Shown: positions 6,528 to 41,630, counted from the first letter of the stretch. The stretch: 64,000 nucleotides of DNA from Nitrosopumilaceae archaeon (GCA_965214835.1 CBDCCK010000002.1:2848001-2912000); one strand, 5' to 3'. The notes: a model not told the origin generated them from the sequence alone. Made by a program: numbers and translations.

Positions 6528-6616
6528 GTAAGAGTTTGCCTCCCGGCGACACTGCTGGCCGGAGCCTTCATGGTACGCCTACCACGCCGTATCTCAGTGG
6601 AGGGGCAAGCTCTTAC
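6528..6616. mobile_element. MITE family B (GTAAGAG...CTCTTAC)
   Basis: ends match the IS66-like element at 15124-16643; related copies near 6248, 14622, 41631, 50255. Confidence 0.8.
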
Positions 6617-6632
6617 GGATATGGCGTGAGAG

Positions 6633-6741
6633 GTAACAGCTCGGGCTCGAAGTGATTTATGATTTTAGGCACAAATTACATCTGCGAAGATCCCTTTGGC
6701 GATAAAATTCATGCCTGAACTTCCAGAGCCCGAGCTGTTAC
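6633..6741. mobile_element. MITE family A
   Basis: TIRs as at 126-236; perfect 8-bp TSD cgtgagag. Confidence 0.9.
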
Positions 6742-6924
6742 CGTGAGAGGGAGTGCTTTGAGTGGGATTCCCTCCGGATTGAACGATAGTCTGACGGTCT
6801 TATCATCGAAATACCTGTACTTGGGTATGAACGTAAAGGACCTTGATTTGTCACCCTTCTCATCAGGCTCGATGCTACCTTGTTTCTTGTCTTTGCTTTT
6901 AATCTTGCCCGTCTTGTATATTTC

Positions 6925-7416
6925 GACAAGCTCCACCATCACAACAACGACGGCGAGAGGGCGCTGCACACGATGGCCGCGATACGAAAGATCCCGTACG
7001 GAAACAGGTCAGAGAAGGGAATGAGGGTGACTGAGACCATGTGTGCCGTATACACCACCTGCGAGATGCACGGCGTCAGCTTTTGCTCGTTCGAAGTCTA
7101 TCTTGACGGCAAGGTTATCAGCACCCCGATGCCGGTCCAGCGTGTCGGTGCAGCGGCGGCATAATGAGCAGGGATACAACAAACCCTGCCGGCACGCCCT
7201 AGAACCGCTCCAGATGTGCAGAACCGCGGCCGGGGCACGGTGACATAATGGCGACAGTGGCGGTAAACAGTACGCAGATTCGGTTTCGATCCGGCGCCGC
7301 TACAGCTCGGATTCCGAAAAGCATGGCAGGCTTGTGCCAAAATCCGGCTTCCAGAGACCGATCAGACAGATTCGTGCCTAGAATCAGGAGCGGCTTCCAG
7401 AGCACGAGCTGTTACC
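6925..7416 (+). pseudogene. IS66-like transposase C-terminal fragment with right end (likely parent type of MITE A)
   Basis: NNDGERAL...RKIPYGNRSEKG; ends in gagcacgagctgttac. Confidence 0.7.
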
Positions 7417-7469
7417 AAGACTCGGCTGATTGTAACCCTTAATTCACAGGCAAACCAACCCAGCACAGG

Positions 7470-7658
7470 TTGCAGGCGCACAGGAGATTGATGCTGCTCG
7501 GAGGAATGCTGCTCATCTTGACGTTTTTGATAAACGACTATCACGGGCAAGATTCCGTAGACGGATTCAACTATGCATACGTTACCGGAGCAGCCATGAT
7601 TGCGGTGTTTTTGGCTAGTTTCTACCTGTTTTATTCAAAAAATGGCAGAAACAGGTAG
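7470..7658 (+). CDS. small two-helix membrane protein
   Basis: two hydrophobic segments in 62 aa. Confidence 0.55.
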   Translation: MQAHRRLMLLGGMLLILTFLINDYHGQDSVDGFNYAYVTGAAMIAVFLASFYLFYSKNGRNR

Positions 7659-7933
7659 CACTATTCGCTTGGCATGAGGCGCACCAAGACGCCCATGATG
7701 GCATTCCTAGGCCGGAAGGCCTCAGAAGCAATCAGGAAAAGCGACCCAAAATGGATGGACACCGGTGATGATGCGACATAATTTTCATACAACACATGCA
7801 GTGTGCTGAGACTTGAACCGTCTTTTATGACCGCCCGACGGCCGGTACGATGGTATGTCATCCGTCAAGCCAGCAGGTCCGAGTTTTACTGGTTCAGCAG
7901 CGATCAAAACCGCAGCTGGGGGGTGTTCAAAAT

Positions 7934-9166
7934 CTACCAGCTGTTGGCATACTCTACTTGCTCTGGGGTCAGCCTGTCAATTTTGACGCTCATTGCCCTG
8001 AGGGCGTCGCGCGCTACCTGAACGTCGATCTCTTCGGGCACGACTATTGCCTTGTTTTCCATCTTCTTGTGGTTTTTGAGTATGTACAGAATCGAGAGGA
8101 TTTGGTTTGAAAAGGACTGTGCCATCACCTCGGGTGGGTGTCCTTCGGCAGCAACAAGGTTTGCCAGCCTGCCCTTTCCAATCAGGTACACTCGCCTGCC
8201 GTTGCGCAGGCGGCACTCGTCTAGGTTCGGCCGCACCTCCCTTGCGGACTTTGTCAGTAGGAACTTGGTATCAATCTCAACATCAAAGTGGCCTACATTT
8301 CCCATGACTGCACCGTCCTTCATCTTGAGTATGTGCTCCCTTCGGATTACGCCGGTCATCCCGGTACAGGTGACAAAGATGTCGCCCACCCTGGAGGCCT
8401 CGGACATGGGCATTACCTCGTATCCGTCCATGTGTGCCTCCAGAGCCCTGACGGGATCAACCTCGGTGACTATGACCCTGCCCCCCATTCCCGCACAACG
8501 GGATGCCACGCCTTTTCCAACCCAGCCATATCCGGCTACTACGATCCTCTTTGTCGCAATGAGCAGATTCATTGCACGTAGGTAGCCGTCAATGGTGCTC
8601 TGTCCTGTGCCGTATCGGTTATCAAACATGTGCTTTGTATGGGCCTCGTTTACCATAATCACAGGATAGCGAAGCTTGCCCTGGTTTTCTATGGCCTTTA
8701 TTCTGGTAACCCCTGCAGTAGTCTCCTCGGTTGCGCCCAGGATGTCGAGTCCCTGGTGCTTTTTGTCAAAATGTGCCTTGACATTCATGTCTGCCCCGTC
8801 ATCTGTCAGGATGGCAGGTTTGTGTTTTAGAACCTGGTCAATACACCAGTCATATTCCTTGCTTGTCTGATCATTCCACGCATAAACATGAATTCCCTGC
8901 GATGCCAAAAATGCGGCGATGTCATCCTGGGTGGTCAGCGGGTTTCCGCCGCATGCTGCAACGTTTGCCCCCAGCTCCTTTGCACCCATCAAAAGTACGG
9001 AGGTCTCTTTTGTGATGTGCAGGCAGAACCCGACGGTCACGCCTTTGAGTGGCTTTGATTTTTTTAATCGGTTAATGGTATTATCCAAGATTTGCATGTG
9101 AGAGCGGGCCCATTCGTAAGAAAGCCCCCCCTGTTTTGCAAGCCTTGGGTTCCTGACTTTGCTCAA
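7934..9166 (-). CDS. ahcY: adenosylhomocysteinase
   Basis: CLHITKET, TEETTAG, KHMFDNRYGTGQS, GYGWVGKG, EGHP; likely TTG start at 9166. Confidence 0.97.
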   Translation of the reverse strand: MSKVRNPRLAKQGGLSYEWARSHMQILDNTINRLKKSKPLKGVTVGFCLHITKETSVLLMGAKELGANVAACGGNPLTTQDDIAAFLASQGIHVYAWNDQTSKEYDWCIDQVLKHKPAILTDDGADMNVKAHFDKKHQGLDILGATEETTAGVTRIKAIENQGKLRYPVIMVNEAHTKHMFDNRYGTGQSTIDGYLRAMNLLIATKRIVVAGYGWVGKGVASRCAGMGGRVIVTEVDPVRALEAHMDGYEVMPMSEASRVGDIFVTCTGMTGVIRREHILKMKDGAVMGNVGHFDVEIDTKFLLTKSAREVRPNLDECRLRNGRRVYLIGKGRLANLVAAEGHPPEVMAQSFSNQILSILYILKNHKKMENKAIVVPEEIDVQVARDALRAMSVKIDRLTPEQVEYANSW

Positions 9167-9353
9167 TGGTTTTGGCTTTTGATCATTGTATAAAATTCTA
9201 TCATTGCATGGGGCGCCGTCCATAATCGTGATTAAGGACATGATTTTTGCGGTGATCGGCGCCAAGCCATGACGTAATGATCACCAATACTGGGACGGAT
9301 CCATGCGGCGATCTGGACTGTGCAGCCATCGATTGTGTTTTTGCGCGGTACTG

Positions 9354-10592
9354 TAGTAACTATGTGTATTAACCAATCACAAAAAGGACAAGAAATTTTC
9401 ACCAAAATACCCAGATACGATACAGTGAAGCAATACGCATGAAACCAGACGACTCAATGATACCAACAGGGGGCAAGTTTCTTCCCAACGTCTCGGCCCC
9501 GTCCCTCCTTGAGAGGTACAAAAATGAGACCGACTCCAAGGCCGCAGCCAGGCTGATGGCCTACATACGGCGCAAAAAAGGCGACTCGATACGCCAGATA
9601 GCCGAGCATCTCGGCCGGGGGTACTCTACGATACGCGACTGGCTGATACGGGCCATGCAGCTTGGCATACAGGGCAGGTACGACATCAAGAGGCCCGGCA
9701 CCAAGATGTGGCTGGATGCAGGGCAGCTCAAGCAGGTGCGCGCCGACCTGATTGCGGGCCCGCGCAGCTGCGGATTAGAGTCGGAGGTGTGGACCGCACC
9801 GCTGCTTGCGGTACACATCAAAAAGAAATACAAGGTAGAGTATGTGGTCACGTCCCCTTACTAGCTAGACACGAAGATCACAATCATTCATACTAATTCG
9901 TGCCTAACTGATGGGGGTAGGTGACCTCGTACAAGGTAGACTATGCCGTCTCCAGCGTATACAAGATACTGCACATGCCTAGGCTTTTCATGCAGAAAGC
10001 CCCCCGCCCAAAGCACCCAAAACCAGCCTCAGAATCCGAGAAAGAGGAATTCAAAAAAAAGCTAGGTGGCACGTAAGGTACCATTCAAAGAGGGGGTACA
10101 CGGCAATGATAGGGGACGAGGCCTCGTTCATCCTTGGGTGGAACGTCAAGAACAGCTGGTATCCCGTGGGAAGGCCCGGTCTTTGCGCCGTCCAACCTGT
10201 CAAAGGAGAGGTTCTATTCGATCGGGGCCCTGTCGGCAAACGGACTTGACTGCCGCTTTTACAAAAAGGCCAAGTACACGTTCATCAGGTTTCTCAAGGT
10301 GCTGCGTCGCAAGTACGGCAAGGTGCTGCTGTTTGTCGACAACGCATCGTATCATAGGGCCACACTGGTCAGGGAGCAGCTAACAGAATGGAGTGGTAAT
10401 GTGGTGCCAAAGTTCCTGCCGCCGTACACGCCGGAGCTGAGCTCGATAGAGGGGCAGTGGCACGGGTTCAAAAAGTCAACTGCAAACCGCCTGTATCAGA
10501 CCGTCGGCGAGATGCAAAAGTCCATACGCGTCATGTTGCACAGGGGCGAGATCAAGATCTGCGAGATGGGTGGTTATCTCAGCTAGATACTA
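9354..10592 (+). mobile_element. IS630-family element, split ORF, interrupted by MITE D
   Basis: HTH ORF 9439-9864 and DDE ORF (DEA..DNASYH..LPPYTPEL); TIR tagtaacta/tagatacta; A-run at the ORF junction. Confidence 0.9.
9840..9932. mobile_element. MITE family D (93 bp, GTATGTGGTCAC...GTGACCTCGTAC)
   Basis: 8-bp TSD aaggtaga; same sequence at 47018. Confidence 0.92.
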
Positions 10593-11095
10593 CAGTTATG
10601 TCCATGGCCCTCCCGCACCTGCACACCGGCGAGCACGTCCCGTCGTTGTCCCGGAACGTGTGAAGCACCGTCTTCTGGGGGTCGTGTCTTCTGGATGTCC
10701 CCTTGTGGTCCCTCTGGCCTCCCGGCTTTTTGCCGGTGCCACTATTGCTGCCGTTGCCACGGTTACTGGCCCTTTCCCTTTTCCGCTGCGCCTTTTGCCT
10801 CTTGTACTATAGTGATCCTGCAGACGGTGGCGAGTTCTTGTTCTCGTAGTACCGGAGCCGCCTGTCTTGCTCCTCGATTGTCCTGTCCTTCTCCTTTATC
10901 ATCCTGCACATTGCCTTTTGGTTATTTTCTAGCGTGCTTATTCTGTCTGTGAATGATACAATTGTGGCCTCTAGTTCGCGGTATGTGGGTCGACGGCCTT
11001 TCATGTTGATGCTATACAGGCATCGTATTTGATCAGCATGATCGCAATATGTTAAGCAGGTTGTCAAAACACGTCAAAACTAGGTGACCTCGTAC
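10593..11095 (-). mobile_element. IS66-like element, left-end fragment
   Basis: same left end and 5' ORF as 14795 and 56000; truncated at the IS630 end; abuts an ISH3 right-end remnant (ctaggaagtactg, 11096-11108). Confidence 0.85.
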
Positions 11096-11181
11096 CTAGG
11101 AAGTACTGACATGGTTACTGGGACTTGGCACTATGGAAGACTTGGAATCTTCTTTTTATTTCACAACTGCACAATTAACAC

Positions 11182-12066
11182 ATGACCAAATCGTGCAGGC
11201 GGCATTTTGCCATTACCGACTCTGACAGGGGGGAGACAATTTGTAACTTCTGCGGCGTGGTTCTGACTGAAAAGCTAGTTGACAGATGCCACGAGAATAA
11301 TTACTTTGAGGAGTTCTCTACAAAGAACAATGCCAGGACAGGGCCTGCCACATGCCTGTCGATGTATGACAAGGGTCTTTATACCGTAATTGGAAGCAAC
11401 ACTGACTCGTCCGGCCACCTCCTTTCAGGCAAGACAAAGTCCAGCTTTGAGCGTCTGCGAGTCTGGGACAGGCGCAGCAAGTCCGTTTCGTTGGGGCGTA
11501 ACTTCGGCACCGCGTTTGTCCAGCTTGACGCCATCAAGGCCAAGCTTGGCATTCCTGACAGCGTCATGGAGGAGACCGCATACCTGTATCGCAAGGTTGT
11601 AGCCAGGCGGCTGCTTCGTGGCAGGCCGATCGCCCATGTAATGGCAGCCTGCTTGTATGCCTCCTGCAGGGCCACCAACACCCCTCGGAGCATAGACGAT
11701 ATTGCAAGAACCGCCAACATCAGGAGGACATCTGTATCCAGAACCCTCCGGCTGCTGCTTTGCGGGCTGAACATGAGGCTGGAACAGTACGACATCCGGG
11801 ACTTTGCCGTAAGGCTGGCAAACAACCTGGGCCTAGGCGAGAAGACCAAAAGGCGCGCGCTGGAAATTCTGGCCGACTCTAAACGGCAGGGCATGCCTGC
11901 AGGCAAAAACCCCGTGGGGTTTGCCGCGGCCTCCGTATACCTTGCATGCCTGGAATGCGGGGAGGAGGTATCCCAGACGCTGGTCTCTGGCCGGTCCGGG
12001 ATTTCCTGCGTGACGATTCGCAACACGGCTGCCCAGATAAGAAAAAGGATCACTCTTCGGCTCTGA
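11182..12066 (+). CDS. tfb: transcription initiation factor IIB paralog
   Basis: zinc ribbon (GETICNFCG), two cyclin repeats, GKNPVGFAAASVY. Confidence 0.95.
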   Translation: MTKSCRRHFAITDSDRGETICNFCGVVLTEKLVDRCHENNYFEEFSTKNNARTGPATCLSMYDKGLYTVIGSNTDSSGHLLSGKTKSSFERLRVWDRRSKSVSLGRNFGTAFVQLDAIKAKLGIPDSVMEETAYLYRKVVARRLLRGRPIAHVMAACLYASCRATNTPRSIDDIARTANIRRTSVSRTLRLLLCGLNMRLEQYDIRDFAVRLANNLGLGEKTKRRALEILADSKRQGMPAGKNPVGFAAASVYLACLECGEEVSQTLVSGRSGISCVTIRNTAAQIRKRITLRL

Positions 12067-13441
12067 TCACCTCTTTTTTGACCCACGTAGTTTGAGATTT
12101 ATGATCCAGCAGCTCTACATTCAGAGACGCAATCTCGTCCCTGATCCTGTCTGCCTCCTCGTACCGCCCTGACCGTCTTAGCTCCTCCCTTTTTACAATC
12201 ATCCCGTTTATGGATCTTACCTCCTCGTCTGAGATTTCTGGAATGGACAGGCCTAGCACCTCCATGTACCTCTCGATCTCCGGCCTTGCAGCCTCGCTGA
12301 CGCTCTTTGTCAGCTGCTCGCCTGCGGCCAGCCTGTTGATTTCCCTGACCAGCCTGAAAAATGCCGACAATGCCTCGTGCGTGTTAAAGTCGTTTTCCAG
12401 GCATCTGTCAAACTCAAGGCCGCATCCCCTTATGATCTCCTGAATCTCCTTGGTGCCCCCTCCGCCTCGTGCATGAACCAGCTCAAAATACGCCGTCTCT
12501 GTCTGCCTCCACTTGACCAGGCTTTCCCTGAGCAGCCCCTCAGAATAGTCAATCGGCTTTGAATAATGTCCCGACAGGCAAAACAGCCTGATGACATTTG
12601 GGCCCCAGTCCCCCAAGAGCCGTCCTACGGACTTTACGTTTCCAAGCGACTTTGACATCTTCTCGCCGTTGACTGTGACCATCCCAACATGCATCCAGGA
12701 TTTTGCAAGCTGCCCGCCTGCATGCGCCTCGGACTGTGCAATCTCGTTTTCATGGTGCGGGAAGATCAGATCCCTTCCACCGCCGTGGATGTCAAAGCCG
12801 CCTCCAAGGTACCTGAGGCTCATGGCCGAGCACTCTATGTGCCATCCGGGCCTGCCTGCGCCCCACGGACTGTCCCATCTTGGCTCCGTATCTGCTAGCT
12901 TCCACAGTGCAAAGTCCAAGGGATCCCTTTTGTCCTCGTCAATTACCACCCTTGCGCCTGACTGCAGCTCGCCGATCCTCTTTTTGGACAGCTTGCCGTA
13001 TTGGGGAAACTCTGACACTGCAAAATATACGCCATTCTTGCTTACATAGGCGGCCTTTTTCCTGATCAAGTCCTCGATGAATCGGATCATGTCTGGGATG
13101 TGTTCTGTGGCCCTCGGATATGCAGTGGCCCTCTTGACGTTGAGCCCGTCAAAATCGCGATGGTAGCCTTTGATGTATTTCTCGCTGATTCCTGCTGCTG
13201 TCTTCCCCTCCACCTGTGCGCGGCTGATGATTTTGTCGTCGATGTCCGTAAAGTTCTGTACCATCTCGACTCTGTGACCCCTGCCCTCCAGATGCCTGCG
13301 CAGGACGTCAAAGACGACAATGGTCCTTGCGTGTCCTATGTGCGAGTCATCATAGACGGTGACCCCACAGAGGTAAATCCCGACCCTGTCCCCAAGCTGC
13401 AGCTCCTTTTCCTGTGCCGATAACGTGTCTGCTATCCTCAT
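12050..13441 (-). CDS. cysS: cysteine--tRNA ligase
   Basis: CGVTVYDDSHIGHAR, GRPGWHIECSAM, KMSKSLGN. Confidence 0.98.
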   Translation of the reverse strand: MRIADTLSAQEKELQLGDRVGIYLCGVTVYDDSHIGHARTIVVFDVLRRHLEGRGHRVEMVQNFTDIDDKIISRAQVEGKTAAGISEKYIKGYHRDFDGLNVKRATAYPRATEHIPDMIRFIEDLIRKKAAYVSKNGVYFAVSEFPQYGKLSKKRIGELQSGARVVIDEDKRDPLDFALWKLADTEPRWDSPWGAGRPGWHIECSAMSLRYLGGGFDIHGGGRDLIFPHHENEIAQSEAHAGGQLAKSWMHVGMVTVNGEKMSKSLGNVKSVGRLLGDWGPNVIRLFCLSGHYSKPIDYSEGLLRESLVKWRQTETAYFELVHARGGGGTKEIQEIIRGCGLEFDRCLENDFNTHEALSAFFRLVREINRLAAGEQLTKSVSEAARPEIERYMEVLGLSIPEISDEEVRSINGMIVKREELRRSGRYEEADRIRDEIASLNVELLDHKSQTTWVKKEVIRAEE

Positions 13442-34130: not shown

Positions 34131-34700
34131 GTATTTTTTCCATGTCATCAGCAAATGTCGGGGATTCATAAGACTCTGATTCCAAAGGCGCCAAAACACG
34201 GTGCCAAAGGATCCAATCTCCAAGGGGCAGTGGTGGACTTTCAACTCGCGCTACTTTACAAAACACGAAAAACAAGACCAGAACGCCCGGGGCCCCTGAT
34301 CCCACCAGCCTTCTGGGACGTCAGAGTCGTCCCAGTCCCTTGTACCTTGCCTGAGTGAAAAATTCCCCCAGACTCCAGATGACCGTTCCAAACCGACGGC
34401 CGAAATATTTTCATGGGCTGAAACTATTACGATTAATCATGGATGATTAATTTTAAAATTACAATATCATGTCCAAAGGAATATCAAGAATCGTGACAGG
34501 AATCAAATGACACAACACAAGAAATGTCTGAGGGTATTGGATATTTCCCTTTCTATCCTGTCACGATATGCCACACATCTTGGAATCTTTTGAATCTTTT
34601 GATCATCAAAAATCTGTAGTCTAGTCATTCATCGACTGTTACAATATCACCTGAGAAAATTATACTCCCGGGCTCTCCTGTGACATTAATCGACACAATA

Positions 34701-35694
34701 GGCCTTATGCGTAATCGACCGGATCGAAATATTCCGACGGTGGCCGGCCACACATGCAAGGCTGACGGCATCACATGACGTGTATGAGCGCGGCAGAGTC
34801 CGTATATAGTGCAGCTACGGGCAGTTCCAGCTGGTAAAAACTACAGTATAGTGCGGCATCGTGTGGTGCCGCAATGCGTTCTGTATCGTGGTATCAGAAC
34901 CCATGCATGAGCTTCTTGTTCCGCTTGTCCCACAGCAGCCTAAAGTTGGCAAGCCCGGCCGTCACCTGGAACTCCCTGTCGAACTTCTCGGCAGTCCCGT
35001 CGTACGGATCACGCATCCGTTTGTACTGCTTGATGCGTCCTATGGCGTGCTCTACTGTCACCCTCTTGCTGCTTATCCTCCTGTTCTGCGCTTTCTGTTT
35101 CTTTGTAAGCTTGCCTTTCCTTGGCTTCTTGTTGGACTGCACGGATGTGACCCCGGGATACACCTCCTCGATTCCCACGTATCCCAGATCCGAGAACATC
35201 TTTACCTTCTCGTCCTCGGGGTGCTTTCTGTTACTGCGCATCCTGGCAGTCAGGATTCCCAGATCCGGTGGGTTGTTCTTTATCATGGTGAGGTCGTGCA
35301 CGCTTCCGGGAGCCGACTTGCTTGCATACATCGTCAGTCCCTTCTTGCCGGCAATCACCCGGGGTGTTGCGCGTAAAGCTCTTCTTCTTGCCCGAGTACG
35401 CCCCCCTTTCTTGGCTCCTTGTCTGTGGGGCGCTGTATGTCGATGTGTGTGCCGTCTACAATCACGGTCAGATCCGGGACGATCTCCCTGATCCCCTCGA
35501 TCGTGCGGGTGTTTCGTATCTTTCGCGATACGGCGTCCGGCGTGGGCAGTATCTTGAGAAATATCATGTCGCAATACCTGAGGTACCTGCATACGGTACT
35601 CTGGTCTATGCCAAAGAATGCCGCAAGCTGCTCCTGTGTCGGGTTTCCGTACTTGCGCATCAGCGACATCAGCAGGGCGTGGCGGTAGGACAGC
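34701..35694 (-). mobile_element. IS5/ISL2-like (DDE_Tnp_4) element, 3' part
   Basis: VDGTH, SDLGY, VEHAIGRIK; right end at 34701. Confidence 0.88.
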
Positions 35695-38490
35695 AAGGAG
35701 AAGGCGCGGGGCAGGAAGGAGAGGATGCAGTACAGGAAGAAGATCAGAGAGTACGAGAAGAAGAGCAGGCAGGACGGCAGGAGGCACGAGCGGGATCAGG
35801 ATAGGATAGAACAGATGGAGCAGCGGCTGGACGCTGAGCGCCGGATGTGGCCCGCAACCTGGGATGACGACAGGCGCTCCGCGGACAACGCCGCCCTCAT
35901 GCACAGGCTCGAGGTGCTCGATGACATAATAGACGGCGGGTCCCTGCAACCCACCACGTCGATGAACCTCCGCCAGTTTGACTACATATATGACCGGTTT
36001 ACGAAGCTTGCCAAAAAGCACACAGAAGGCCCCCTGTTCTCAGAAGACGAGGACAACTTGCCCGGAAACCGGTGCAAGCTGTCCTACCGCCACGCCCTGC
36101 TGATGTCGCTGATGCGCAAGTACGGAAACCCGACACAGGAGCAGCTTGCGGCATTCTTTGGCATAGACCAGAGTACCGTATGCAGGTACCTCAGGTATTG
36201 CGACATGATATTTCTCAAGATACTGCCCACGCCGGACGCCGTATCGCGAAAGATACGAAACACCCGCACGATCGAGGGGATCAGGGAGATCGTCCCGGAT
36301 CTGACCGTGATTGTAGACGGCACACACATCGACATACAGCGCCCCACAGACAAGGAGCCAAGAAAGGGGGGCGTACTCGGGCAAGAAGAAGAGCTTTACG
36401 CGCAACACCCCGGGTGATTGCCGGCAAGAAGGGACTGACGATGTATGCAAGCAAGTCAGTACTTCCTAGATGTACTTTTGCAGACCCGACACGGCACCTC
36501 CGCTACTTTCCGCGATCGTTTACAAACGAGTCGGCCGCATCGACAATGCACGCGACAAACAGCATCATGGTAAACCCCTTCCCTCCTGCAAATCCGTCCC
36601 ACTTGGATTCCACGTCTATGAACACGGCAGTCCTCCACAGGTTGTACAGTATGACAGACATATAGAACAGCAGCAGCCTGACGACCGGGGAATTGCTGCA
36701 CGTCTTGCCCATTATCCCCTTGATCACCCTGAACCCGGTCTCGATTCCCCACCGACTGCGGTACTCCTCCGGTATCTGCTCAATGACTGCCTCTGCACTT
36801 TTAGCAGACATGTTGGTGGCAAAGACCAGATACCTGTCGGCTATGGTCTCTTCTGCCTTGTCCTTCTTTGCTGCTGCCGTGCCGTCCTTTTCTACCTCGT
36901 CCTTTTCCACAATGACTAGCCTGAATGTGGCGCTCTTGCCGTCCTTGTTGGTCATTGTATATTTTGATACCGCACCGCGTTCTCCGCGGTCATGCTCCTC
37001 TATTGCCGCCACTATCCTCCTGTTCTTGACGGCAGGCATGATGTAGCTGCCCGTGCTTGTTTCTGCAGCCCTCATGCAGTCCACGTTAAAGAACCCGCGG
37101 TCATACAGGAACGTCTTGATCCTCATCCCTGATCTGGACGCCTTGCGGATCATTTTAGGCACGAAATCGGCCAGTTTTGCCTCTTTTGGAAGCTGCAGCG
37201 AGGAAAGCACGAGGTCAGACCCGTCATCTGATCCTATTCCGTGCATGGTAATGTGCGAGAGAAACGTCGACGTGCCGTTCTTGGGCTTTGACTTTCTGGC
37301 GATATCCTCCAGGCCCTTGCCATAGTATTCCACGTCGGTAACGTCCACTGCCACGACGTCCGTGTTGTGCAGCATGCCTGACCTGCGGGCGCACCTTACC
37401 GTATGCTGCAGCATGGAGCTGCACCACTTTTGCGCATCATCCAGGCTGACGCCCCGGATCGCCTTTAGGATCCAGTCCGGACTAGGCGTACGGCAACTAT
37501 ACGCGCCGCCCTTGGAGGCAGCCCCGTCGTCATGCTGCTGCCTGCTGCATTTTGAGGCCCGCCTGCGAAGGTGCGTCACGGCAGATTCTGCAAACATCCT
37601 CCTCTCAGACATGAAATATAGAACGCGCAGTGCGTCGATGTGGTCATACACTGCGTTGCGACTCTTTGAGACGGCCAGCCCGAGCTTGGGAAACCGCCGT
37701 CGCAATGTTTTAAACTGTCTCGATGTTATGTCAAACTGGTGTGCAAACACGTCGTTTTGTGTTACTGACATGATGATGGTTGGCACACCGCCTGATCTAT
37801 AGTATGATGGTCAAAAAATCTCGGCAAATTGCGTAATTATCGTGCCTGCAAAAGTACATCGAGGAACTACTGAAGTCGGCTCCCGGAAGCGTGCACGACC
37901 TCACCATGATAAAGAACAACCCACCGGATCTGGGAATCCTGACTGCCAGGATGCGCAGTAACAGAAAGCACCCCGAGGACGAGAAGGTAAAGATGTTCTC
38001 GGATCTGGGATACGTGGGAATCGAGGAGGTGTATCCCGGGGTCACATCCGTGCAGTCCAACAAGAAGCCAAGGAAAGGCAAGCTTACAAAGAAACAGAAA
38101 GCGCAGAACAGGAGGATAAGCAGCAAGAGGGTGACAGTAGAGCACGCCATAGGACGCATCAAGCAGTACAAACGGATGCGTGATCCGTACGACGGGACTG
38201 CCGAGAAGTTCGACAGGGAGTTCCAGGTGACGGCCGGGCTTGCCAACTTTAGGCTGCTGTGGGACAAGCGGAACAAGAAGCTCATGCATGGGTTCTGATA
38301 CCACGATACAGAACGCATTGCGGCACCACACGATGCCGCACTATACTGTAGTTTTTACCAGCTGGAACTGCCCGTAGCTGCACTATATACGGACTCTGCC
38401 GCGCTCATACACGTCATGTGATGCCGTCAGCCTTGCATGTGTGGCCGGCCACCGTCGGAATATTTCGATCCGGTCGATTACGCATAAGGT
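35695..38490 (+). mobile_element. IS5/ISL2-like element lacking its left end, interrupted by ISH3-like copy 3
   Basis: inverted copy of 34701-35694; right end attacgcataaggtc at 38490. Confidence 0.88.
36457..37872 (-). mobile_element. ISH3/IS4-like element copy 3, intact 427-aa transposase 36503-37786
   Basis: both TIRs; 4-bp TSD aagt. Confidence 0.95.
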
Positions 38491-38550
38491 CTAGTCCCAA
38501 GCCCTATAATTTTCGTAAACTTAATACGTGCGGCACGCCATTGATCACAT

Positions 38551-39219: not shown

Positions 39220-39468
39220 AGATGCAAGCTGGCGGAGCCGGGCATGATCATACCAATATCGGCAGACGGAAACGTGCCGCACAAGAGCAGCCGCGACACT
39301 GCGGCGGAAAGGCAGATCCGTCATCTGCAGGAAGGGCGCATATACGATCAGGAAAAGCGGCCCAAACGGATGGAGGAGGACACCGGTGATGATGCGACAT
39401 GATTTTCATATGAAACATACAAACTACCAGATCCCTACTTTTTTATAGAATGTCCAGATAGATTACGG

Positions 39469-39563
39469 CGTTGGCGACGGGAATTGAACCCGCATGAACG
39501 GCCCGTCTCGGGGCCACTCGCCGAGGTCTGAACTCGGTGGGCTTGCCAATGCCCAACGCCAAC
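39469..39563 (-). tRNA. atypical type-II tRNA, anticodon CAG, G73
   Basis: acceptor GTTGGCG/CGCCAAC, D stem GGGC/GCCC, anticodon arm CCGAG-TTCAGAC-CTCGG, 9-bp V stem, T arm GCGGG-TTCAATT-CCCGT. Confidence 0.85.
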
Positions 39564-39771
39564 GTCATTTCTTGGACCTGCTTTGTATATTAGATTAGAA
39601 AAATGCGGGACTTTGGGTAATCATTCAGGAACGGCATTGTTGTACAGATTGACAGACTCAGAACACCATCCAGATTATACGGATTTTCCCTATTGCGATG
39701 TCATCCGAACCCATGAACAGGATGGAACCGGGTTCGTCACAAACATGATATGCAGAACATCACACGCGGCA

Positions 39772-40153
39772 CTATTTCAGACCAAGCCACTGGAGTCCTT
39801 TCAGGTCGGCAAAGAATTGCTTGTAGACTTCCGCCGGTGGCCGGTTATACGGAAAATTCTCAAGCACGTACAGCCTCTGGTCTATTATGCGCACCAACTC
39901 GAGTTGCTGGTTGACACTCAGGTTCTCATAATGCGTCACCTCCACTATGGCACCCTGCAGCTCAGACTGGAAGCGTTCAAACCACTTGTCACGCCAGAAC
40001 AGCTTGTCACTGTCACCCGGAACAGGATTTACGCGCGCTTCAATCTGCTTGAAAAACCTTCTGAGACTGGATATCTCCCTGCCTCTTTTTATTTTCCTGA
40101 TTGCTGCACGAGCGACATCCACTATTATGACAACTATGATTCCCCCTGCAATT
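39772..40153 (-). pseudogene. hypothetical membrane-anchored protein, N-terminus cut by ISH3-like copy 4
   Basis: frame stays open up to the IS junction (IAGGIIVVIIV-DVARAA...). Confidence 0.6.
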
Positions 40154-41570
40154 CAGTACTTCCTAGATGTACTTTTGCAGACCCGACACGGCACCTCCGC
40201 TACTTTCCGCGATCGTTTACAAACGAGTCGGCCGCATCGACAATGCACGCGACAAACAGCATCATGGTAAACCCCTTCCCTCCTGCAAATCCGTCCCACT
40301 TGGATTCCACGTCTATGAACACGGCAGTCCTCCACAGGTTGTACAGTATGACAGACATATAGAACAGCAGCAGCCTGACGACCGGGGAATTGCTGCACGT
40401 CTTGCCCATTATCCCCTTGATCACCCTGAACCCGGTCTCGATTCCCCACCGACTGCGGTACTCCTCCGGTATCTGCTCAATGACTGCCTCTGCACTTTTA
40501 GCAGACATGTTGGTGGCAAAGACCCTGGTACCTGTCGGCTATGGTCTCTTCTGCCTTGTCCTTCTTTGCTGCTGCCGTGCCGTCCTTTTCTACCTCGTCC
40601 TTTTCCACAATGACTAGCCTGAATGTGGCGCTCTTGCCGTCCTTGTTGGTCATTGTATATTTTGATACCGCACCGCGTTCTCCGCGGTCATGCTCCTCTA
40701 TTGCCGCCACTATCCTCCTGTTCTTGACGGCAGGCATGATGTAGCTGCCCGTGCTTGTTTCTGCAGCCCTCATGCAGTCCACGTTAAAGAACCCGCGGTC
40801 ATACAGGAACGTCTTGATCCTCATCCCTGATCTGGACGCCTTGCGGATCATTTTAGGCACGAAATCGGCCAGTTTTGCCTCTTTTGGAAGCTGTAGCGAG
40901 GAAAGCACGAGGTCAGACCCGTCATCTGATCCTATTCCGTGCATGGTAATGTGCGAGAGAAACGTCGACGTGCCGTTCTTGGGCTTTGACTTTCTGGCGA
41001 TATCCTCCAGGCCCTTGCCATAGTATTCCACGTCGGTAACGTCCACTGCCACGACGTCCGTGTTGTGCAGCATGCCTGACCTGCGGGCGCACCTTACCGT
41101 ATGCTGCAGCATGGAGCTGCACCACTTTTGCGCATCATCCAGGCTGACGCCCCGGATCGCCTTTAGGATCCAGTCCGGACTAGGCGTACGGCAACTATGC
41201 GCGCCGCCCTTGGAGGCAGCCCCGTCGTCATGCTGCTGCCTGCTGCATTTTGAGGCCCGCCTGCGAAGGTGCGTCACGGCAGATTCTGCAAACATCCTCC
41301 TCTCAGACATGAAATATAGAACGCGCAGTGCGTCGATGTGGTCATACACTGCGTTGCGACTCTTTGAGACGGCCAGCCCGAGCTTGGAAAACCGCCGTCG
41401 CAATGTTTTAAACTGTCTCGATGTTATGTCAAACTGGTGTGCAAACACGTCGTTTTGTGTTGGTATCATGATGATGGTTGGCACACCGCCTGATCTATAG
41501 TATGATGGTCAAAAAATCTCGGCAAATTGCGTAATTATCGTGCCTGCAAAAGTACATCGAGGAACTACTG
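40154..41570 (-). mobile_element. ISH3/IS4-like element copy 4 (frameshifted)
   Basis: both TIRs; near-identical to the other copies. Confidence 0.93.
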
Positions 41571-41630
41571 ACATGGCCATAAAGACCCTTGCAGGCAATG
41601 TAGCCTGGGGGTAACCTCTTACCGCCGAGC

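Follow-up and report, generated by a model that had tools for sequence, protein, structure and literature searches.

Can a transfer RNA (tRNA) gene be a working gene when its anticodon calls for leucine while its body bears marks of a serine tRNA, and if so, which amino acid would it deliver? The question is raised by a gene, here called X, in a 64,000-nucleotide (nt) stretch of the genome of a Nitrosopumilaceae archaeon (GCA_965214835.1, CBDCCK010000002.1:2848001-2912000), referred to below as the window. A first-pass annotation of the window had described a single tRNA with anticodon CAG and Ser-like identity elements, and had taken it for an acquired missense, mistranslating or decoy tRNA. 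X is in fact one of several copies of a family in which the anticodon switches, and the question therefore shifts from one mutated tRNA to a system. The five further copies in the same genome are called B to F (Table 1).

The structural features listed in the first-pass annotation were all found. X is 95 nt long, with an acceptor stem of 7 base pairs (bp), all Watson-Crick, followed by U8 and U9. The D arm has a 4-bp stem (GGGC/GCCC) and an 8-nt loop with GG, and the anticodon stem has 5 bp and a loop reading UU-CAG-AC, hence A37. The variable arm consists of one unpaired C, a 9-bp stem with two G.U pairs, a 6-nt loop (CGAGAC) and two unpaired nucleotides, and the T arm of a 5-bp stem and a normal T loop of the GUUCAAUU type. 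The discriminator is G73, CCA is not encoded, and the annotated TAATATA box lies upstream. ARAGORN reported tRNA-Leu(cag) at 39467-39563 (-), and the Rfam tRNA model (RF00005, gathering score 29) matched 39469-39563 (-) end to end (model positions 1-71) with 47.2 bits and, in E-value mode, E 4.3e-9. X is thus a member of the tRNA family by a cloverleaf with T loop, D loop and 7-nt anticodon loop and by a score above the cut-off, which it also exceeded in a whole-genome scan. Its unconstrained minimum-energy fold is the cloverleaf, at -47.2 kcal/mol (z -3.68; 1 of 200 shuffles as good), and it scored 117.1 bits on the family model R1 described below. A gathering-mode Rfam scan of the whole 64 kb missed X, although it lies 18 bits above the gathering score when its region is scanned alone; speed filters can lose long-arm tRNAs of this kind.

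Other tRNA classes do not account for this structure. The acceptor/T branch of X is 7/5, not 8/4, 9/3 or 9/4, and with its 4-bp D stem and CAG anticodon X departs from the selenocysteine tRNA on every point (9/4 branch, 6-7-bp D stem, UCA anticodon). Charging by alanyl-tRNA synthetase (AlaRS) is excluded, because X has U3:A70 and not the G3:U70 that marks tRNA-Ala. Non-canonical introns are frequent in thaumarchaeal tRNA genes, according to an excerpt of PMC8450103, and we considered the variable arm as an archaeal intron of a class I tRNA. This was rejected, since the arm forms one continuous helix of 9 bp closed by a hairpin loop, has no bulges and no bulge-helix-bulge motif, and its pairs covary as a long helix across genera.

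Which amino acid such a body would accept can be approached through the identity marks of class II tRNAs. G73 with a long arm is the rule for seryl-tRNA synthetase (SerRS), and A73 for leucyl-tRNA synthetase (LeuRS) (PMC7609411 and PMC5389517, in excerpt). The local canonical tRNAs obey it, with G73 in 9/9 tRNA-Ser and A73 in 9/9 tRNA-Leu genes (the latter from three genomes). X has the archaeal tRNA-Ser mark of G73 and a long variable arm, without a Ser anticodon (NGA or GCU), and has neither the A73 nor the Leu-type arm of archaeal tRNA-Leu; the X family lacks the arm of the local canonical Leu genes, which has 3 bp, an NNAG loop and a UUC tail. With the canonical Nitrosopumilaceae tRNA-Ser and tRNA-Leu, X has in common that it is class II with a 7/5 branch, and it shares G73 with Ser and CAG and U32 with Leu(CAG), but its D stem has 4 bp rather than 3 and its variable stem 9 bp rather than 5 (Ser) or 3 (Leu). 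The annotation was therefore right to call X non-canonical for Leu, and a home-made Leu covariance model sets it apart likewise (37.0 bits, against 108.5 for the canonical tRNA-Leu(CAG) of the same genome). Of the two residues it had named as normal for tRNA-Leu(CAG), A73 held throughout; G37 is present in the canonical gene of this genome, whereas those of two relatives, G007 and G005, have A37. The family model, for its part, leans towards serine. Among 26 loci in its family-wide search it picked up 15 canonical tRNA-Ser and 2 canonical tRNA-Leu genes, and its best matches at 22 loci in other families of the class were 18 tRNA-Ser, 4 tRNA-Met and no tRNA-Leu; like X, the tRNA-Ser genes of those families have a D stem of 4 bp and leave two bases unpaired behind the variable arm. 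The variable loops of the X family show no conserved sequence, which fits an enzyme that reads shape rather than bases.

The host reads CUG in the ordinary way in a core gene. Its genome (3.22 Mb, 52.6% GC, two contigs) is very rich in insertion sequences (ISs). The Rfam tRNA model matches it 58 times; for two ordinary relatives of 1.6-1.8 Mb the counts are 42 and 40. Canonical genes for tRNA-Leu(CAG), tRNA-Ile(GAU) and tRNA-Phe(GAA) are all present, the last two with A73. There is one SerRS, with an N-terminal arm domain, and one LeuRS; a second SerRS or LeuRS was looked for in this genome and none was found. CTG is the commonest Leu codon (37.1 per 1000), and in DnaK, aligned with eight relatives, 19 CTG codons stand opposite Leu in 85% and Ser in 1% of cells, with ATC/ATT opposite Ile and TTC/TTT opposite Phe. 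Since CUG reads as Leu in this core gene, global recoding, already judged unlikely in the annotation, is excluded. With canonical decoders present and DnaK codons read normally, X is supernumerary and the code is standard in core genes.

The six copies in this genome have almost invariant bodies and three anticodons (CAG, GAU, GAA). A promoter box of the AATCTAATATAC type stands at equal distance from all six and from a copy in G002, of the same genus, which is identical to B with its flanks included. The trailer of about 45 nt is kept in every own-genome copy but C, where an IS66-type end truncates it. Comparison of X with B separates the body from the anticodon: the tRNAs are identical at 91 of 95 positions, three of the four differences, at positions 32, 34 and 36, fall within the anticodon loop, and outside that loop 1 of 88 positions differs, against about 23% divergence in neutral flanks. 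Identity is 47/60 in the leader, 39/45 in the trailer and 112/149 in intergenic DNA, and the adjacent membrane-protein gene has a synonymous divergence (dS) of 0.227 and a ratio of non-synonymous to synonymous divergence (dN/dS) of 0.49. The body must consequently have been held by selection, or by conversion sparing the anticodon, while the anticodon changed. A similar picture is seen in G049, where the tRNAs of two paralogous elements agree in their acceptor, D and T arms and differ in the anticodon arm and the variable arm.

Conservation of the fold extends across genera. Our covariation alignment comprised 26 matches, 25 of them distinct and one being the canonical tRNA-Leu(CAG), and 98.2% of its cells were paired, a figure that is favored by the fitting of the alignment to the model. 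Changes on both sides were found in 24 of 30 pairs, including all nine of the variable stem and all five of the anticodon stem, and compensatory changes occurred in all five helices. None of 500 shuffles matched the observed pairing values, and slid partners paired in only 38-53%. The 7/5 branch is found in X and in all 25 non-canonical rows, and the family has kept G73, a 4-bp D stem, a variable arm of 8-9 bp, the T loop, G18G19, a purine at 37 and, in most members, U33, and it has no G3:U70. By these comparisons X is an intact gene with its own promoter, kept by selection.

How far the family reaches was explored with a covariance model built from the own-genome and G002 copies and run over 151 Nitrosopumilaceae genomes, of which G094, G108 and G109 are unpublished and enter the tallies only. 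Strong matches were found in two large genomes of a sister genus (seven in G105, four in G088), where the flanks that we retrieved have about 69% GC, and looser relatives from other genera in G049, G090, G122, G061, G160, G124 and G001. The class II non-canonical genes collected across Nitrosopumilaceae numbered 31, and every one has an anticodon of the form NAN (A35). By amino acid these are Leu in 13 (CAG 4, UAG 3, GAG 3, AAG 2, UAA 1), Ile in 11 (GAU 10, UAU 1) and Phe in 7 (all GAA); Val and Met anticodons were not seen among the 31. The discriminator is G73 in 30 and U73 in one, a degenerate G105 copy with acceptor mismatches. Homologs with A73 would have pointed to a recent pseudogenising mutation in X; with G73 in 30 of 31 family members, such a change from A73 to G is argued against. 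A 93-nt "tRNA-Ala(ggc)" beside one G105 copy was discarded as an ARAGORN false positive in DNA of 84% GC.

Within the genomes searched the family is confined to Nitrosopumilaceae. The model did not find it in 70 genomes from other families of the class, and an exact family pattern gave 15 matches in contigs of species-representative genomes, of which only one was a tRNA (the same-genus metagenome-assembled genome G002). A looser D-arm pattern hit 78 loci in metagenome contigs, none of them a tRNA and all chance matches. A virus origin is unsupported, the family-specific pattern having no match in viral contigs. The patchy distribution, together with the IS-dense surroundings, agrees with the earlier description of X as acquired. 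The locus, its IS junction and the paralog variants were seen in assembled DNA contigs of three public runs from two studies. In run X2, from another study, one contig has the 7-nt D-arm deletion (39546 region) and others have paralog anticodon letters, so that the whole paralog set, deletion variant included, occurs in independent samples.

A second, unrelated scaffold in the same genome follows the same rule. Four class I tRNAs of 72 nt have a tRNA-Ala-like body with G3:U70 and A73, anticodons of the hydrophobic NAN type, and a mismatch at 31:39 in all four. The G3:U70 pair alone directs AlaRS, whatever the anticodon. Two unrelated scaffolds with hydrophobic NAN anticodons in one genome, both belonging to anticodon-blind synthetases, are the strongest indirect support for a missense function.

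The explanation that we favor, with confidence somewhat short of even, is that X is a functional missense tRNA of serine type, linked to mobile DNA and charged by an anticodon-blind SerRS. According to this explanation the RNA would be transcribed from the TATA promoter, matured and provided with CCA, and the single housekeeping SerRS, blind to anticodons, would put serine on it. It would then compete with the canonical tRNA-Leu(CAG) at CUG, placing Ser instead of Leu. Its role would be that of a dose-limited or conditional tool of conflict or of a selfish element (toxin-like, addiction or abortive defence) rather than of a housekeeping decoder. Yeast tRNA-Ser engineered to carry GAA or GAU anticodons kills the cells when it builds up, according to an excerpt of PMC6125640; a missense tRNA that is harmful when abundant would therefore act as a toxin unless kept low or induced only in conflict, which fits the location. 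A wider claim, which we regard as unlikely in its full extent, is that mobile elements of ammonia-oxidising archaea carry programmable missense tRNAs on Ser-type and Ala-type bodies as an RNA-only toxin or abortive-infection weapon. Anticodons would then be swapped among the commonest hydrophobic codons, turning Leu, Ile and Phe into Ser or Ala proteome-wide, with a target codon that evolves fast.

Several observations weigh against serylation and should temper the interpretation. The main counter-argument is the strict A35 rule: serylation does not predict a restriction to hydrophobic NAN anticodons, and if the charge were leucine, the Ile and Phe variants would be conservative and tolerable, so that the restriction would be explained more simply. 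The "Ser-like" description in the annotation was borne out by G73 and the long arm but not by overall likeness. On home-made models, each built from nine canonical genes, X scored 30.8 bits as Ser and 37.0 as Leu, typical of neither; copies B and E scored 16 and 33 bits, respectively, and canonical Leu reached 58.3 bits even on the Ser model, compared with 108.5 on its own. The variable arm, with its one unpaired nucleotide, 9 bp, 6-nt loop and two unpaired nucleotides, is unlike the local Ser arm (5 bp, GCAA loop, one unpaired nucleotide), and SerRS may therefore not accept X. Position 15/48 (U15/U48) departs from the usual tertiary pairs, as does A8 in the sister genus. A 7-nt deletion in the D arm of copies C and D has left their promoter in place, so some copies spread or persist without the standard fold. 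Several toxic genes under purifying selection would need a control mechanism, and we found none. Finally, expression of X, its serylation, its use on the ribosome and its biological role are steps that we infer.

What else could maintain such genes? It is doubtful, in our judgment, that they are spare or replacement decoders carried by mobile elements and charged according to their anticodon (by LeuRS, through the long arm, for NAG and UAA, and through the anticodon by isoleucyl-tRNA synthetase (IleRS) for GAU and phenylalanyl-tRNA synthetase (PheRS) for GAA) or always with Leu, which would supply the most used hydrophobic codons or outlast host nucleases cutting normal anticodon loops. The idea draws strength from anticodons that are Leu, Ile or Phe in 31 of 31 cases and that track base composition, the Leu anticodons reading CUN (AAG, GAG, UAG, CAG) occurring only in genomes or loci of 51-70% GC and GAA and GAU dominating at about 35% GC. 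It also gains from CTG being the top Leu codon, from the U32-U33-CAG that X shares with the canonical Leu(CAG) loop, and from the slightly higher scores of X, B and E on the Leu than on the Ser model. Fast change confined to the anticodon arm would fit an arms race with anticodon nucleases, a mechanism known from phage work. Against this, G73 in 30 of 31 genes contrasts with A73 in canonical Leu, Ile(GAU) and Phe(GAA), a Leu-type arm is missing, the family model picks Ser over Leu (15 vs 2 and 18 vs 0), and we know of no acceptance of a class II body by IleRS or PheRS. Moreover, AlaRS would charge the parallel 72-nt family, with its G3:U70 and A73, regardless of the anticodon. We give similarly little weight to a tRNA-shaped RNA that does not translate and would serve as a decoy or sponge for enzymes acting on NAN loops (nucleases, modification enzymes), as a regulator or as a primer for mobile DNA. 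Such an RNA would avoid the cost of toxicity, and it could accommodate a fold strongly conserved in spite of its odd tertiary positions, the D-arm deletion variants kept together with their promoter, and the IS66-type end 10-50 nt downstream of four members; the authors of the allo-tRNA study suspected as much for many of the allo-tRNA(UAU) genes found close to transposons and toxin-antitoxin loci (PMC5389517, in excerpt). Yet the family retains what a translating tRNA needs (G73, 7/5 branch, T loop, G18G19, mostly U33, purine 37), no partner gene is common to loci of different genera, and without a named enzyme the A35 rule would stay unexplained.

Two further explanations are considerably less probable. 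That X is a decaying duplicate, a pseudogene spread by IS activity under relaxed selection, is very unlikely. In its favor are the high IS content of the genome, the D-arm deletions of C and D, a G105 copy with U73 and mismatched acceptor pairs, the half-copies of the Ala-like unit, and the IS that interrupts the gene upstream of X; against it, every stem of X is intact, the body of X and B has barely changed beside its neutral flanks, compensatory changes run through five helices across genera, and the promoter box is conserved. Least probable of all, and hardly to be credited, is local recoding, in which the genes of the carrying element would be written with CUG (or AUY, UUY) as Ser, as in recoded phages with suppressor tRNAs. 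That analogy and the mobile context are its sole support; against it, anticodons differ within one element family (GAU at one and GAA at the other of the paired G049 loci), X is surrounded by IS copies and fragments rather than by a coherent element, and core genes use the standard meaning, while the element genes have no informative homologs.

The closest known system is that of the bacterial allo-tRNAs (Mukai et al. 2017, PMC5389517, in excerpt here as above). They share with the X family a long arm and G73/U73, interpreted there as the identity set of SerRS, anticodons of which most are non-serine, Leu and Ile(UAU) among them, and a position near transposon-related genes and toxin-antitoxin loci, with active genes beside degenerate copies; some put Ser or Ala at sense and stop codons in Escherichia coli. 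They are, however, defined by an 8/4 or 9/3 branch (12 bp), whereas the X family has 7/5, and they are bacterial with anticodons covering 35 codons, whereas the X family is archaeal and NAN throughout. The X family thus has the long arm, the G73/U73 and the non-serine anticodon of allo-tRNAs, and lacking the branch it is not an allo-tRNA in the strict sense. The nematode nev-tRNAs and other eukaryotic non-canonical tRNAs with a variable arm are likewise class II and supernumerary with foreign anticodons (Gly, Ile), and raise the same question of tolerated ambiguity; unlike X, with its Leu anticodon and non-Leu discriminator, they are reported to be Leu-charged in vitro, and they are eukaryotic, lineage-wide and not linked to mobile DNA (PMC3333845 and PMC4300185, in excerpt). 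The Candida tRNA-Ser(CAG) resembles X as a serine-type class II tRNA that has the anticodon CAG and reads CUG. Candida has reassigned CUG throughout its genome and lacks the Leu decoder, whereas in the host of X CUG is Leu in DnaK and a canonical tRNA-Leu(CAG) is present. The Candida tRNA is also mentioned in the excerpt of PMC6125640.

Natural tRNAs that break the codon table are thus known from bacteria (allo-tRNAs), nematodes (nev-tRNAs) and CUG-clade yeasts, and in literature on class II, allo-, nev-/nov- or mistranslating tRNAs we found no report of them from archaea; a survey of thaumarchaeal mobile elements treats tRNA genes, in the excerpt at hand, only as integration targets (PMC6563490). 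The present case differs in three ways, namely a family with a strict A35 rule, a conserved body with a fast anticodon arm, and a second scaffold under the same rule. If charged as its marks predict, the family would be a natural system of codon-targeted mistranslation on mobile DNA, relevant to genetic-code drift, to the conflict of archaea with their mobile elements and to the design of orthogonal tRNAs, and its tRNAs could be natural tools for deliberate protein mistranslation. If uncharged, it would represent tRNA-shaped RNAs of a new class, in which the constraint on the anticodon has no explanation. In either case, genes of this type are labelled tRNA-Leu, -Ile or -Phe by their anticodon, which inflates tRNA counts in these genomes.

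Table 1. Positions of X, its relatives and neighboring features ("window", positions in the 64,000-nt stretch; C2, host genome; C3 and C4, G004)
Feature	Position	Strand	Basis or remarks
X, non-canonical class II tRNA gene, anticodon CAG	window 39469..39563	(-)	ARAGORN, Rfam, minimum-energy fold, family model
Anticodon CAG of X	window 39528-39530		
G73 of X	window 39469		
Conserved leader with TATA-like box	window 39564..39623	(-)	sequence; comparison between copies
TAATATA box	window 39586-39592	(-)	exactly -29..-23 from mature 5' end of X
Conserved 3' trailer (TAATCTAT ... TATAAAAAAG ... GGGATC)	window 39424..39468	(-)	common to X, B, D, E, looser in F
Short dispersed repeat, ~92 nt	window 39327..39421		directly 3' of trailer; ~25 partial matches genome-wide, 73-86% identity
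3' part of small membrane-anchored protein gene	window 39772..40152	(-)	5' end removed by IS
IS element, 34-nt imperfect terminal inverted repeats	window 40148..41575	not assigned	repeat search; interrupts upstream gene
Copy B	C2:1826707		anticodon GAU
Copy C	C2:1824008		anticodon GAU, 7 nt of D arm missing
Copy D	C2:182881		anticodon GAU, 7 nt of D arm missing
Copy E	C2:1090322		anticodon GAA
Copy F	C2:914323		anticodon CAG, more distant copy
Intact membrane-protein gene upstream of copy B	C2:1826079-1826498		140 amino acids
Canonical tRNA-Leu(CAG)	C2:1091389-1091473		
Ala-like 72-nt tRNAs (loci L138-L141)	C2:66616-66687; 2756709-2756780; 3019690-3019761; 2234423-2234494	(-); (+); (+); (+)	anticodons AAG, AAG, GAG, GAA
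Third set (loci L142-L144)	C2:381279-381363; 702318-702405; 2806142-2806225	(-); (+); (+)	anticodons UAU, GAA, GAA
G004 tRNA clusters (loci L133, L134)	C3:492800-494600; C4:790800-807500		

X lies between two copies of one IS, with IS66- and IS4/IS5-type transposases nearby. This flanking IS, one copy of which interrupts the upstream gene, has at least 28 near-identical copies in the genome, and a contig of run X2 spans the same junction of IS and gene. The dispersed repeat beyond the trailer is not common to the other tRNA copies. The truncated membrane-protein gene is intact upstream of copy B, in the same open frame as at X. Its 140-amino-acid product has one N-terminal membrane helix, received no Pfam, PADLOC or Atlas assignment, and is found upstream of X and B only; a paralog with 46% identity (C2:175052-175468) lies about 0.8 kb upstream of an odd tRNA (C2:176244-176317) to which ARAGORN assigns a non-standard anticodon loop.

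The other copies are found in varied surroundings. Copies B and C have IS66 elements around them, together with a ParB-like gene and a fragment of a methylase; copy E is in core DNA, with the canonical tRNA-Leu(CAG) 1 kb away; and roughly 0.5 kb separates copy D from DndB and a candidate defence system of the PDC-M33 type. At that last locus (L023, C2:170001-190000; positions 6601-12348), DndB and the three-gene candidate system, one protein of which is also SspD-like, adjoin copy D; beyond them come part of a type I specificity subunit and IS3- and IS4-type transposases. In G049 and G090, related tRNAs stand between a 600-amino-acid membrane protein and a 255-amino-acid coiled-coil protein, and the G049 loci are integrated elements with a tyrosine integrase next to tRNA-Phe and a TraG/HerA-like ATPase. 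A protein neighbor common to loci of different genera was not found. At one G049 locus (L089, G049:C1:464414-472498), tRNA-Phe(GAA) and the tyrosine integrase are followed 2.4 kb further on by a class II G73 tRNA that is also GAA; the idea that the anticodon of an element's tRNA matches its integration target was dropped, being true in one of four loci (40 kb examined at each). Nor does the 3' part of X have a second copy in the window, and X as an attachment site was rejected. Pairing of leader with trailer amounts to 6 bp in X and is not conserved in B or C.

An IS66-family end faces the tRNA from 10-50 nt downstream at four non-canonical tRNAs (ends at C2:1826801, 1824095, 914409 and 702405). 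For one IS66-type end, 2 of 16 copies abut these tRNAs, which cover well under 0.1% of the genome; this adjacency suggests target preference or shared hot spots. The tRNA as cargo of the IS was rejected, as just those 2 of 16 end copies abut such tRNAs.

Further unusual tRNAs accompany the Ala-like scaffold. Each Ala-like gene is preceded (-69..-33) by a half-copy of itself, covering tRNA positions 7-42 (D and anticodon arms), and then by the TATA region. The anticodon arm of the half-copy changes along with that of its own tRNA (17/17 identical in two loci, one and two differences in the others), and half-copies also occur without a tRNA, at C2:2276713 and in G002. They might result from gene conversion, or might act as a regulatory leader or as an anticodon donor. 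A unit in G052, of another genus, is 89% identical to the Ala-like unit over 152 nt but has A3:U70, and G160 has a G3:U70 relative with anticodon AUC. A third own-genome set is class II with G73, has a body different from that of the X family, and shares a common trailer with a T-run. The 4.3-Mb genome of G004, of the same genus, has 63 Rfam tRNA matches and extra clusters of class I tRNAs (Thr, Gln, Arg, Asn) with bodies unlike the archaeal set; these were rejected as members of the X family, being of unrelated kinds.

A nested IS structure lies at 34699-38493 of the window. It contains perfectly complementary inverted arms of 621 nt (34699-35319 / 37873-38493) and 380 nt (35315-35694 / 36078-36457), and the IS copy at 36452-37874 is identical to the one that interrupts the gene upstream of X.

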